Source of the DNA: Eledone cirrhosa
Taxonomy: Eukaryota
DNA: 64,000 nt
NCBI GenBank assembly: GCA_964016885.1
Contig: OZ024743.1
Location: 360,840,001-360,904,000, forward strand
Direction of reading: 5' to 3'
In this document: in pieces, positions 2,478 through 57,646 of the stretch
How positions within the stretch are numbered: position 1 is the first letter of the stretch
Layout: each line of letters starts with the position of its first letter
Translations under genes and position numbers: made by a program
Notes under the pieces: generated by a model
Told to the model about the DNA's origin: nothing
Databases searched by the model: none
Seen by the model: only the letters and a program-made list of their open reading frames with translations

Positions 2478-2872
2478 CTTCAAAATATTAATGAATATAA
2501 ACATTGATGTGATCAAATATATGTTATTATACATATTTCAGAGGTACTGATCTATTTCATCAGTACGTTCTCATCAGATAAAATAAATTGATGTCTGACA
2601 TACCTCGACTGCCAAGACTGGATCTGAACCATCAGCATGGTCGAGCTATGTCAGACATCAATTTATTTTATCTGATGAGGACGTACTGATGAAATAGCTC
2701 AGTACCTCAGAAATATGTATAATAAAATATATTTGATCACATGAATGACTATATTTATTAATATTTTGAAGAAATATTAATAATTCCAGAAAAACTCACG
2801 GTTGAGTGCTTCTAATCTATTGTAAAACATTATTCATTGATTAATTCAATGAACCTTGTTAAACGTTTAATT
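2478..2872 (+). mobile_element. Non-autonomous PLE-type HHR palindrome with one-sided tail (family A)
   Basis: Arms 2478-2610 and 2640-2771, tail 2772-2872, flanked by (TA)n. Confidence 0.8.
2665..2728 (+). ncRNA. Type-I hammerhead ribozyme (mirror copy 2521-2584 on minus)
   Basis: ATTTTAT CTGATGA [GTACTGA/TCAGTAC stem II] GAAA TATGTA TA ATAAAAT. The base of stem II is imperfect. Confidence 0.7.
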
Positions 2873-3377
2873 ATATATATATATATATATATATATATAT
2901 ATATATATATATATATATTTATATTAGTGTATATCCTGTATCTATAGATATACGCTATGTTTATAAATAAACACTTTGAAAGCCAGAGCAATGAATAGAA
3001 GACTGGAGCGATGTCCAGGAATGTAAAATGGGATAACTGTCCATGCATTTCCAACTTAGTGGTTTTCATTATGACAATGATTCCCTCTAGCTAGGGCTGG
3101 ACTTTGAAACAGGCGAAAATGTATAGTTTTTTTCACAGAACAATGTTCCTATACAGCTTTCGTAGATATAATCGGTAATGAGACACGTGTTAGATTATCT
3201 AATCCACTAAATCTCTTTTCAAATTTCTTCTCTTCCTTATACCATATTTTGCACTCTGTATATGCATACATGCTCAAGCATACGCACTCACACACACATA
3301 TATATACGTGTATATATATATATATATATATATATATATATATATACGCATATTCATAAATTATTAGTATTACTATA

Positions 3378-3482
3378 GAGGTTGACTTTGCCTTTCATCC
3401 TTACGGGGTCGATAAAATAAAGTACCAGTAATGCACTGGGTAATTGCTGGCCTTGTGGCTAAAGTAGAAACAATTATTATTA
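3378..3482 (+). mobile_element. 5'-truncated copy of the Nin-like SINE
   Basis: gaggttgactttgcctttcatcc...gtagaaacaattattat. Confidence 0.85.
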
Positions 3483-3618
3483 TTACTATTACTATTTTAT
3501 ATATATTATTACTTATATATATATATTATTAGAAATGTAAGCTATCGCCGTATTTTGACTAAAGAAATTATTTAGCCTGATAGTGGGGTTAAGAACCCTC
3601 GGAGAAATAGAAAAAGAT

Positions 3619-3684
3619 AAGTATGGGAGTCGAACCCACATCTTTGGTTACACGGACCACTGTGATACCATTTACACCAACACT
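3619..3684 (-). mobile_element. tRNA-like SINE head or tRNA pseudogene (GTG anticodon-like loop)
   Basis: Minus strand TGGTGTAAATGG (A box), TGGT-CCGTGTA-ACCA arm, GTGGG-TTCGACT-CCCAT T arm. Acceptor stem is poor. Confidence 0.55.
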
Positions 3685-5420
3685 ATATATATATATATAT
3701 ATACATATACATATATATATATATATATATATATATATATATATATATATATATATATATATATATATATATATATATATATATATATATATATATATAT
3801 AAATATATATATATGTATATATATATATATATATATATATATATATATATATATATATATATATATATATTTATATAAACGGAAAAAATATATATTTGTG
3901 TATACCTGTGTGTATGCGGATATGTGTGCATATTTATGTATGTTAATATGATTTCACAGTACATGTATTCGATAACGATTAAACTATTGGTAATTGAAAA
4001 AGTTTATTTTCAAACAAAATATTCAAGCGTTACATCGAAGAATGCGGCGTGACTAAAACATAAATATCTCTTGATATTATTAATAAATATAAACCAATCT
4101 GATCAATGGAAAAAGCCAAATATCACATCAAAATTGTCTTAGTATCACTGGCTATCATCCGCAATGACATATCTTCAGAACCACTTTAAATGTATGTTGC
4201 TTGCTTAAAGATAAATTCCTAATGATATATACATTAAATGTACCACTACGATTATTATCACCTTCTCACCACACCTGTTATATATCTATTAACCTTCAAC
4301 AAAATTACACGATCAACACATACTCACATGCGCACACACATACACCGTTCCACAACAAAGCAATCCTTCAATGCTCTCGCCTCATTTAATGCAATATTGT
4401 ATCATAAACCGAATGTCTGACTAAATTACAAAATCAAGTTTAACCCTCACCAGAATATAATTAAACTGTTGACTAACTCTTAATCCCAAACAGATTTATC
4501 TTAAAAATGATTTCCTTATTACCCACACTAATATATTTCTCTTCTGTGTCGTTCTGGTGGAAGGATTCACAACCCCAGACTCGTTTAATTAAGTGCTGGT
4601 GGGTTGCTGGGAATAGCTGTGGTGTAGTGTAGGACGGAGCTGAAAAATATACAGTGTTCCTTCATACCCAGATGATCCATTGAATCCTGCATTCAGAGAT
4701 GGACAACAGCAGCAGCTTTAGCAAACAGCTGTGTTTAAATGTATAAAAGTGCCTTCTATATATAATTTCCTGTTTTCCTTTACAAATGTTAACCCATCCA
4801 TTTACAAACACAATATCAATAAACTTAAATTATTCGTATAGACACAAGCACACATGAAATTATATAAACGCTGACAACCTATGCCACTCGATCACATGTA
4901 GAGAGATTCTTTAATAATTCGTGCGTAATGGTATTTAAAGCGGTCAAGGCCACCATGAGAGAAAGGCATTTGTAGAAACCTAACAAAATCTTCCTAATCA
5001 CTGCCACCTCTCAACTCTGAATATGAATTTCTACACTTTACCAACCAGTATTGATTACTCATTTAGATGATGCTTGAATATATTTTAAACATATATTCTA
5101 ACATATAATCATATTCTACTTATGTCGTAAGTACTCTTTTTCGGAAATTACCCAGTTATATATATATATACATACATATATATATATATATATATATATA
5201 TATATATATATATATATATATATATATATATATATATATAGAGAGAGAGAGAGAGAGAGAGAGAGAGTATATATATATATATATATATATATATATATAT
5301 ATATATATATATATGTATATATATATATATATATATATATATATATATATATATATATATATAGAGAGAGAGAGAATATATATATATATATATAGAGAGA
5401 GAGAGAGAGATAGGTAGCTG

Positions 5421-5887
5421 GATATAAGAATAATATTTCGCTTCAAGAATAGTTTTATACAAATATGTACAGAAATCCGGTTTTAGGAAGCCGCAGCTAT
5501 GCAAACACCGGGGCTAAGGCCCTCTGATGGTGTCCAGCAGAAACAAGGGGGATAACCGTCTATGCATTTCAGGCCTGACTGGCCTTCTTCAGGGCGGTCC
5601 TTCCCACCGCTTGCGACTGCCGGACTTGAAAACAGTCGAGCATATATAGTTTTCTCGTCTGTGTAAATGAGGTGATTAAACTCATTTGCATATGAAGCTG
5701 CATAAATTGCCACAACTTATAATATATTAGAAATAGTATTTCGCTTCAAGCAGATCTTTATACAAATATGTATAGAAATTTCGTATTTCTAAAGAAATAA
5801 GTTTTAGGAAGCCGTAGCTATGCAAACACCGGAGCTAACGCCCTCTGGTGGATTCCAGCAGAAGCAATAGGGACAGCCGTCTATGCA
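5421..5887 (-). mobile_element. Retrozyme-like partial tandem (period 321 nt) containing one HHR
   Basis: About 5421-5566 is repeated at about 5727-5887, and the repeat boundary falls in HHR stem III. Confidence 0.75.
5555..5598 (-). ncRNA. Minimal type-I hammerhead ribozyme
   Basis: ACCGCC CTGAAGA AGGCC-AGTCA-GGCCT GAAA TGCA TA GACGGT. Stem III ATGCAT is palindromic; cleavage site AUA. Confidence 0.9.
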
Positions 5888-55529: not shown

Positions 55530-56085
55530 GATAATGGACGGAGTATTAGAGAAATTGGGGAGGTGAGTTGAGTCCAAGAGGGGAAAGGACCCAAGGCGGT
55601 GAATCAGACTTTGTTCTGTCCTGGTACGCGAGGCCTGTGATCCATTATGTAAAAGGACACCCAGGACTGAAACAAGTAGGGAAGAATGACCAGGAGAACA
55701 GTTATGACGGGCGACAGGTGTATCCAAACCGAGTCGTATGTCCCTCAAATGTTCGGAAAAACGGTCCGCCATACGGCGTCCCGTTTGTCCGATATATAAA
55801 GACCCGCAAAGGGAACACCGGAGGGCATAGACAACGTGGGTGGATGTGCTGGTTATAGGAATGGCGGATACGGAAACACCCGTTAGGACCTGTAAGAGTG
55901 GTGGAGGTGGAAATAAAGGGACAAGTGTTGCAGCGGGAACGGGTACAAGGATGAGGGGCGGGGTGGAGTCGTGGGAGAGGACGAAAAGGAACTGTGAACC
56001 AGGAGGTTGCGGAGTTGCGGGTGCGCTTAAAAGCAGTAATGGGTGGGTTTGGAAAAAAGCGAGAAGTGACGGCGTCAGAAGAGAG
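55530..56085 (-). pseudogene. Neptune-like PLE GIY-YIG fragment
   Basis: TSTHVVYALRCSLCGSLYIGQTGRRMADRFSEHLRDIR...PVARH...RTRTEQSLIHRLG. Confidence 0.88.
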
Positions 56086-56146
56086 GATACCTACTGTTGT
56101 TTTTATGTATATTTGTCCCGTTCTTTTTATTATTATGTTCTCTATA

Positions 56147-56249
56147 GCCGAGGTTCACTTTGCCTTTCATCCTTACGGGGTCGATAAAATAAAGTACCAG
56201 TAATGTACTGGGTAATTGCTGGCCTTGTGCCTAAAGTAGAAACAATTAT
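56147..56249 (+). mobile_element. 5'-truncated Nin-like SINE with 15-bp TSD
   Basis: TSD attatgttctctata at 56132-56146 and 56245-56259. Confidence 0.9.
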
Positions 56250-57038
56250 GTTCTCTATATGTGTTCTTGAATTCATATCTATATGTTTCTGTCCCTACTT
56301 TCGCTTCCTGTAGCTCTCTTCCATAGTCTAGCAACCACTTTGATAGTATTGATGCCATCGTAGTTACAACTGAATGCTATTGTGTTAGTTGTTTTTCTGC
56401 ACTGTAATTAATGCTAGGCTTGTGCCTTAGAGTGATAGAGAGGACTGTATTAACTGTGCATGAACTTATATATATCTATCTGTATTTTTGGCCTTATATT
56501 CGCTTCCTAGTTTCAGCTGACTGCTATTGTGGTTAGTTAGTTTTTTTTTCTGCAATGTATTTACTACTGGCCTTGTGGCTTAGGATGGAAGAGAGGCCTT
56601 TTTTTTGTTGTCGCTGTCACCGTGGCTGGCTCATCACTGTTGTTGTTGTTGTTATTTTGTTGTTGGTGTTACCGCTTGGGTAATGGGTACTGCCATTGAC
56701 TTGATACTAATATCAATGATGCCACCACTATTACGACGACCGGGGAAGGTGACGGGTGGTGCTAATGTTTGTTACCGTTACTATTGTTGTTGTTGCTATG
56801 GTCTTGGTGAAAGATGCCATCAAATCTGTGTATCACCCTGCCTCAGAGCTCTATTTATTGCGTCCACTGTCTACTGGGCTTTGGCTACACAGTTTTTTCG
56901 TTTTTTTTCGTTGATAGTACTTTACCTTAGCAAGCGTGACGGCTGCGAGACCCTTAAGGAACTCATATATCTGCTGGGCACACAAGCAATAGGACGCGTG
57001 TTTCTTCCTGCCGGCGGCATATCAAATATATCGGGTAC

Positions 57039-57120
57039 CATCTGAGGATACCGTTCTCATAACAACAAATGCATGAAGGACATCTCGATTGCATGGAGAA
57101 CCGTGGAAATAATGTTAATG
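57039..57120 (+). ncRNA. Hammerhead-like motif with damaged stem III
   Basis: CAT CTGAGGA TACCGTTCTC...GAGAACCGTG GAAA TAATGT TA ATG. Confidence 0.5.
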
Positions 57121-57286
57121 ATTAAACAATATATGTAACCTCAGCATCAAATTTTGTTATTTTTATAAAAATCGTAACTAAAAACTACGTTATTTGAGAG
57201 CTTTCTCCTACTTACTCCTGCTTTAACCAAAACAATCTCTTCTGAACACACACACACACACACACATATATATATATATATATATA

Positions 57287-57646
57287 TAAAATAAAGTTAA
57301 ATAAAAAGTCAAATGATTAAAATTTAGCTTCGTTTATTACTGCTATATATATTTCAGTGACAGCCATCTTTGGCTGTGACCTCTTCAGGCAGTTTGAATT
57401 AGTATGGTATAGACAACAACATATGTACTTGTCTATACCATACTAATTCAAACTGCCTGAAGAGGTCACAGCCAAAGATGGCTGTCACTGAAATATATAT
57501 AGCAGTAATAAACGAAGCTAAATTTTAATCATTCGACTTTTTATTTAACTTTATTTTCCACTACTCCGGAGTAACCAAACGAACCTGCGCATTTCGTCGA
57601 GTGCTCCAGCCTGCATACTGAGATACAACCAACATAAACTCAAAAT
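57287..57646 (+). mobile_element. HHR palindrome with tail (family K); intact HHRs at 57339-57393 (-) and 57452-57506 (+)
   Basis: Arms 57287-57416 and 57429-57557, nearly identical. The tail is homologous to 29689-29770. TA flanks. Confidence 0.9.

Follow-up and report, generated by a model that had tools for sequence, protein, structure and literature searches.

Stubs of Penelope-like retroelements in Eledone cirrhosa: a case for two priming events on one RNA as the origin of their inverted arms

We describe here six palindromic inserts in a stretch of 64,000 nucleotides of the Eledone cirrhosa genome (contig OZ024743.1, positions 360,840,001 to 360,904,000; hereafter the window), which are, close to certainly, stubs of Penelope-like retroelements (PLEs). 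Each consists of an inverted arm, a direct arm and an unpaired tail on a single side, and the reading we favour, and consider reasonably probable, is that a single RNA was primed twice, from two fixed start sites, to make each palindrome, the two cDNA ends being then joined. With a little less assurance, slightly on the better side of even, we propose that the inverted pseudo-long terminal repeat (pLTR) and the one-sided tail of PLEs arise by twin target-primed reverse transcription of the same RNA molecule followed by microhomology repair. The window has 34.5% G+C, is rich in microsatellites and comes from a 3.0-Gb genome; palindromes were located by self-BLAST, the output of an inverted-repeat finder being swamped by microsatellites.

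The inserts, designated by the position at which an earlier note on this DNA had placed their start, belong to four families, namely A (29431 and 57287), B (2478), C (13445) and D (38105 and 40575). Positions within a family are numbered on a natural reference unit, with 0 at the tail-less end (site 0) and, in family A, +96 at the tail end. Family A arms continue unbroken into a 4.15-kb tandem unit (locus L062, 5297-9451) with a reverse transcriptase (RT; YRDD) and a GIY-YIG endonuclease, and intact open frames of 893 and 894 codons were found at L212 and L213. The 892-aa product of L213 carries YRDD at 351 and a GIY-YIG-like motif at 772, together with RWK at 37, DKT (for DKG) at 120, the linker CNCRNPESC (CxCX5C) at 752, CKLC (CxxC) at 850 and CRH (CxH) at 878; a CX2-5CxxC linker, sought in the same protein, was absent. 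A Pfam scan of the family A parent gave no RT hit and a GIY-YIG match (E=6.5e-4, 20.4 bits) just below the 22.6 cut-off. Family C shares the CxCX5C, CxxC and CxH motifs with family A, and tblastn with the family A endonuclease end retrieved a Hydra-type endonuclease C-terminus upstream of the pLTR in family B (L118, L126) and an endonuclease end at the same place in family C (L352, L353, L355, L356, L357, L361, L366). An intact open reading frame (ORF) was retrieved for family A, and for neither B nor C.

Judging from these sequence motifs, families A, B and C are 5'-truncated insertions of Hydra-type PLEs, the assignment being made by diagnostic motifs (Craig et al. 2021); the families are new, whereas their clade and layout are known. 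The whole PLE insertion architecture was found, that is 5' truncation, tandem units, an adjoining inverted truncated copy and a tail at one end, and a 7.7-kb version of the same design occurs at L349. Family D is a 530-nt non-coding unit in tandem with one hammerhead per unit; its longest open frames, among those listed, have 93-99 codons, and those tblastn matches of the family A endonuclease end that were checked at family D loci were other repeats in the flanks. This non-coding hammerhead repeat likely borrows the same enzyme.

The fixed outer ends, lying in TA, would also suit miniature inverted-repeat transposable elements (MITEs) or other terminal-inverted-repeat DNA transposons with TA target duplications, although any target-site duplication is masked by the (TA)n flanks. 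However, family A centres range from -64 to beyond -3000, the two ends of an insert differ by the tail, and both arms are fragments of an element encoding RT and GIY-YIG, in sizes up to the 7.7-kb version. Since centres vary and the parent encodes an RT, this reading is refuted and we leave it virtually no chance, in agreement with the earlier note, which had regarded the inserts as minimal PLE integration products and had named fixed centres as the mark of MITEs.

Searches with exact motifs returned 1138 (TA)n/site-0 junctions and 1951 tail ends for family A, and 2528 and 410 end motifs for families D and B, respectively. The two outer end sites are fixed and lie 87-117 nt apart; 28 of 30 sampled family A tail ends run into (TA)-rich or (CT)n(TA)n sequence, and the other two into the next unit. 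In seven of these 30 (L081-L110) the tail is separated from (TA)n by a (CT)n run of 2-16 units, against a single CT in the template; RT stuttering at the start of synthesis, or later slippage, is possible. For the tally of pairing and arm lengths, the first 100 entries in the list of 1138 site-0 ends, from one contig and one exact pattern, were mapped onto the natural unit. An inverted partner ending at +96 adjoins 67 of them, 26 were scored as solo, six have an interrupted direct partner and one continues inverted, while a tail-less partner was found at none of the 100. Three of the 26 solo-scored loci conceal a short or whole tail and are further cases of arms without overlap, and about 23 of the 100 tail-less arms have no tailed partner within 150 nt. 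These lone arms show that site 0 can stand alone.

Pairs were counted as asymmetric when their arms differ by more than 10 nt: 22 of the 67 two-arm loci have a longer tail-less arm, 17 a longer tailed arm, and 28 are symmetric; in seven pairs the arms do not share any sequence. The earlier note had proposed that each palindrome was made by fold-back synthesis of one copy. A tail-started cDNA that folds back yields only a shorter, contained tail-less arm and therefore fails for the 22 loci and for the seven without overlap, so that fold-back does not hold as a general rule, though it may account for the symmetric subset. In a smaller set of 41 loci the tail-less arm was more often the longer one (19 vs 5), a skew that was lost in the larger set (22 vs 17, p=0.52), and no claim is therefore made on which primer acts first. 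In family B, 26 of 30 loci were mappable (four without an anchor alignment were dropped) and were counted by eye; a tailed partner adjoins ten of the 26, with the tail-less arm longer in seven (four of them without overlap), two symmetric pairs and one longer tailed arm. Arm lengths of family D were excluded because its tandem unit makes the mapping ambiguous.

A completed form of the earlier note's fold-back, in which the cDNA primed at the tail end folds back and an endonuclease then cuts one arm at site 0, seems to us an unlikely but serious candidate. It accounts for the shared haplotypes, coupled arm lengths, symmetric centres and snap-back inserts reported below, and also for the 29431 copy, whose arm passes site 0 and anneals by 7 nt to the end of a fifth family, E; its components are in print as 'self-priming' (Arkhipova 2013, PMC3846280) and 'EN-mediated resolution' (Craig 2021, PMC8557442), EN standing for endonuclease. 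Most classes are reproduced provided that the cut may hit either strand, but the same base has then to be cut on one strand or the other for the 22 tail-less-longer and the 17 tailed-longer loci, the no-overlap loci require cleavage at a place without duplex, and a separate route is needed for lone site-0 arms. Moreover, the in vitro sections of PMC11167929 define the tail ends as RT start sites, not as cut sites.

The inner ends fall at -232 to -215 in 50 of the 100 family A arms (hot spot -223), and the inner hot spots of families B and C lie near -165 and -174. The -223 hot spot is likely a transcription start, giving stubs of 200-450 bp. In family B (L118, 1430-1470) the inner hot spot has an initiator-like TCACT word with a TATATAAA box about 25 nt before it, an arrangement consistent with transcription starting here. 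Both arms extend beyond -232 in 12 family A loci, against 2.9 expected, and 11 loci have symmetric arms that end elsewhere than at the hot spot, where 1.5 were expected (0/20000 shuffles in both cases). This coupling of arm lengths suggests that the same RNA copy served both arms.

Haplotypes were compared at the 54 of the 67 loci having at least 60 shared columns, excluding gap columns and positions above -25. As the earlier note had anticipated, arms of one locus are more alike than arms of different loci, with 0.77% mismatch within and 1.86% between loci. Over 17 polymorphic columns, 173 agreements and 2 disagreements were counted where 76.8 disagreements were expected, the tail-less-longer class alone giving 33 concordant and no discordant sites; the columns -20 and -16, homopolymers that looked discordant, proved to be gap-placement artefacts. 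Sixteen variants are common to both arms of a locus and occur in no other arm sampled, another set gave the same picture of concordance, and at L064 and L068 the agreement holds even with kilobase spacers between the arms. Both arms of a locus, having one haplotype, therefore derive from one template, and on this point the earlier note is upheld, with the reservation that haplotype sharing alone fits, and cannot separate, one molecule, one source locus or later conversion.

Two primings on two RNAs of one source locus (or on both pLTRs, 5' and 3', of a single transcript), or two templates homogenised afterwards by gene conversion between the arms, were also weighed. Shared variants do not tell one molecule from one source locus, the 16 locus-specific variants count in favour of this reading, and a dimeric enzyme, as predicted for the Poseidon PLE (PMC11167929), could hold both RNAs. 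Independent RNAs would, however, leave unexplained the joint passage of -232 and the shared stops off the hot spot, and haplotypes agree even where kilobase spacers separate the arms. We thus judge these routes improbable.

At 21 asymmetric loci the junction of the arms could be resolved by an exact walk, which skipped loci with mismatches near the junction and covered part of the 67. Eight junctions contain extra bases, and eight of the other 13 overlap by at least 2 nt (chance about 17%). Several of the inserted bases copy nearby arm sequence (L035, L298, L303, L061b), although some short inserts may be mismatches close to the junction. Locally templated inserts of this kind are the pattern left by polymerase-theta end-joining.

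In the two-priming scheme that we prefer, the RT-endonuclease would nick both strands of a (TA)n target. One strand would prime at the distal site, which is the tail end (+96 in family A), and the opposite strand at the proximal one, site 0; opposite-facing copies would thus issue from the two strands, with a tail on one copy only. Synthesis of both cDNAs would proceed on the same RNA towards its 5' end, with strand displacement of the first cDNA by the second, and would stop early or at the RNA end; microhomology end-joining, with inserts templated locally, would then link the free ends, and each joined cDNA would template the second strand of the other. Lone arms would be left where only one priming fires. 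Two primings on opposite strands would give fixed outer ends, one tail, head-to-head arms and either arm longer, and the resulting inserts are probably inert by-products. A precedent exists in L1 twin priming, where two primers on opposite target strands use one RNA and the cDNA ends are joined by microhomology, the second primer acting at variable places and the two parts being non-overlapping. Here, on the contrary, both sites of initiation are fixed, and overlap of the two copies, which is usual, produces the palindrome. No twin-priming account of PLE inversions was found in literature listings that lacked most subscription papers, among them the 2004-2006 Penelope papers.

Several points weigh against two primings on one RNA. 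The family A tally is a non-random sample. Copying the same RNA twice requires strand displacement over one RNA stretch, and for the clade the basis would be copy statistics joined, by analogy, to in vitro work on another clade. Fold-back fits equally well the 28 symmetric centres, some of which stand at natural hairpins (-93, hammerhead stem II), and the short snap-back inserts at L303, L061b, L046 and L313; coupled arm lengths are equally expected if the longer arm templates the shorter one, and arm-to-arm gene conversion after insertion is a possible source of the shared haplotypes. The -223 hot spot also has an ATAT microhomology and an 8-nt palindrome, so that an RNA end is not required there. 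Finally, the one-tail rule has exceptions in family B (L279, tail-less on both sides) and family A (L090, tailed on both arms), and the 29431 arm runs past site 0.

The window has 25 matches to the hammerhead core CTGANGA-N5-30-GAAA, vs 2.2 in shuffles, and the core lies in both arms of the 2478, 38105 and 57287 copies; the earlier claim that the ribozyme points towards the tail is therefore true of the tailed arm only. An Rfam scan of the window showed no hammerhead among the 150 of 159 matches listed. In predicted folds, stems I and II form in both family A copies and less cleanly in families B-E. Hammerhead cleavage was considered as the main source of centres and discarded, only L110 being centred at the predicted cut, which by the usual hammerhead rules we take to be at -56 in family A; this locus, where both arms end at -56, is possibly the trace of a self-cleaved template.

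Self-alignment of the window gave inverted matches at 2472-2777 (87%), 13527-13894 (93%), 29431-29687 (93%), 38194-38549 (92%), 40666-40785 (98%) and 57288-57557 (98%), and the palindrome with an extension on one side reported by the earlier note is present at all six places. The arms are as follows.

2472-2611, minus strand: family B tail-less (inverted) pLTR arm, mapping to -136..+3 of the natural reference L118.
2608-2872, plus strand: family B tailed arm, mapping to -166..+98, with a hammerhead core at 2672-2713 (core match) and the tail at about 2778-2872.
13445-13707, minus strand: family C tailed arm, mapping to -173..+94 of the natural reference L152, with the tail at about 13445-13526.
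13710-13893, plus strand: family C tail-less arm, with the core altered to CTGGAGA at 13789, as in the other arm (arm comparison).
29381-29437, minus strand: end of family E (the fifth, hammerhead-bearing family), overlapping the family A arm by 7 nt; 98.5% match to 11746-11811.
29431-29560, minus strand: family A inverted arm, reaching 12-14 nt into the tail; maps to -114..+12, with the self-alignment starting at 29431.
29560-29770, plus strand: family A tailed arm (by mapping), hammerhead core at 29571; the 14-nt centre is also in a short-read contig.
38080-38381, minus strand: family D tailed arm (by mapping), tail at about 38080-38193.
38380-38549, plus strand: family D tail-less arm (core match and mapping), hammerhead core at 38418.
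40551-40728, minus strand: family D tailed arm of a short copy (by mapping), too short for the hammerhead.
40723-40784, plus strand: family D tail-less arm of the short copy (by mapping).
57287-57426, minus strand: family A tail-less arm, mapping to -139..0 and ending exactly at site 0.
57415-57646, plus strand: family A tailed arm, mapping from -143 as far as the tail end; its hammerhead core lies at 57457 and its tail at 57558-57646.

Some details of the earlier description needed correction. Both ends of the inserts lie in (TA)n as described, except at the left of 29431, where a family E fragment separates the arm from (TA)n. The two family D copies begin at 38080 and 40551 rather than at 38105 and 40575, which brings their tail to about 117 nt, beyond the 85-100 nt given for all. 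The hammerhead is indeed missing from the 40575 copy, whose tailed arm is too short to hold it, and turn points do differ within a family (-139/-143 at 57287 vs -114/-112 at 29431, and likewise between the two D copies). The CTGGAGA variant is private, being found in two of 34 family C arms scored, both at this locus, but at 13789 and, reversed, 13624, not at 13581. GTCACT is present in both arms of the 57287 copy, at 57484 and, reversed, 57356 in place of the positions first noted, and is not private, since 152 of 153 family A arms, from loci collected with this subfamily, have it.

Because assemblers handle palindromes near long (TA)n poorly, artefacts of assembly or of fold-back reads were also considered. 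The 57287 locus was spanned by no read or contig, sequences over 56300-57660 being mostly other family copies, and an empty site was not seen among them. On the other hand, arms differ by 0.8% on average, and by more within the window, in four families the end sites are constant and make biological sense, and the 14-nt centre of the 29431 copy, between its arms, is present in a short-read contig possibly from the same individual. An artefact is thus scarcely credible.

The inverted arm at 29431 is joined, after its 12-14 nt of tail, to the end of a different PLE-like family, and this E/A fusion (29381-29437) is apparently either one insertion from the RNAs of two families or a later nested insertion. 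The family E copy at 11746-11811 runs on into a tail; longer copies of E are found at 5893-6621 and about 11300-11881, and an older lone family A arm, 78% identical to the reference, at 27085-27287. A seventh insert of the same design, unlisted earlier, was found by self-match.

40340-40533, strand unassigned: family I insert, with a 78-nt tail at the left and arms at 40418-40533.

The same three end points of family I recur among 70 fetched loci, and a lone tailed arm of this family at 40817-40957 brackets, with the 40340-40533 insert, the short D copy.

Back to back with the 2478 insert, a 484-bp palindrome in (TA)n (1993-2476, 89% self-match) has neither tail nor hammerhead core; across 53 fetched loci its two ends keep a fixed position while breaks are numerous close to the centre, and it looks like a true MITE-type repeat, in contrast to the PLE stubs. 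An old palindrome (13114-13428, 73% self-match) lies beside the family C insert, perfect palindromes occupy 48419-48614 (196 bp, centred on (TA)n) and 48991-49076 (86 bp), and a 60-bp palindrome 39209-39268. A dispersed repeat of about 190 bp, resembling a short interspersed element, is found at 1065-1263 and about ten other places (copies 83-97% identical), and a tRNA match at 3616-3686.

The layout, treated in the earlier note as unusual, is the described norm for PLEs: passages of PMC3846280 and PMC8557442 give an inverted truncated copy and a tail at one end as typical, and these two and PMC11167929 name, where they discuss it, its route of formation as unresolved. The Hydra-type Eledone families resemble the Hydra clade of C-terminal EN+ PLEs, as outlined in PMC8557442, in the single ORF, RWK, DKT, CxCX5C linker, CxxC, CxH and C-terminal GIY-YIG of family A, and also in the pLTR hammerhead, (TA)n targets and inverted 5'-truncated copy with a tail at one end. 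Unlike what is outlined there, where elements are generally <3 kb with a tail of 30-40 nt, the family A unit measures 4.15 kb, about 1.3 kb of it after the stop codon, tails are of 87-117 nt, the family A tail precedes the start codon (+152), and most copies are pLTR-only stubs.

Arkhipova et al. (2013, PMC3846280) described Penelope elements of Adineta vaga that have a junction palindrome and occur with or without a tail; these share with the present inserts the head-to-head inverted pLTR, the one-sided tail and AT-rich targets. Their palindromes are ascribed there to self-priming on an antisense template, and the no-overlap and tail-less-longer classes observed here argue against self-priming as the general route. 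Family D is comparable to metazoan non-LTR retrozymes (bioRxiv 10.64898/2026.07.22.740005, as summarised there) in its non-coding tandem unit with one hammerhead core per unit, and differs in bearing the full PLE signature of two fixed ends, inverted arm and 117-nt tail.

Support for two start sites comes from the Poseidon PLE of Anolis, for which the experimental sections of Frangieh et al. 2024 (PMC11167929) report that both target strands are nicked and extended in vitro and that RT starts at two internal sites bounding the tail, with an enzyme predicted to be a dimer. The AT-rich target, the dispensable hammerhead cleavage and the two start sites liken it to the families described here; Poseidon belongs, however, to a different clade, and in that report, as far as those sections go, inverted arms are unexplained and the later steps unvalidated.

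The stubs themselves are ordinary PLE debris, mainly useful for annotation, as they mimic MITEs and microRNA hairpins. A scan of the window gave many sub-threshold microRNA matches. The interest lies in the mechanism, copy statistics linking a model of two primers on one RNA to the two start sites seen in vitro. If this is true, the Eledone genome, where young stubs number in the thousands and fall into at least four families and where intact parent ORFs are present, would hold a record of PLE inversion intermediates.

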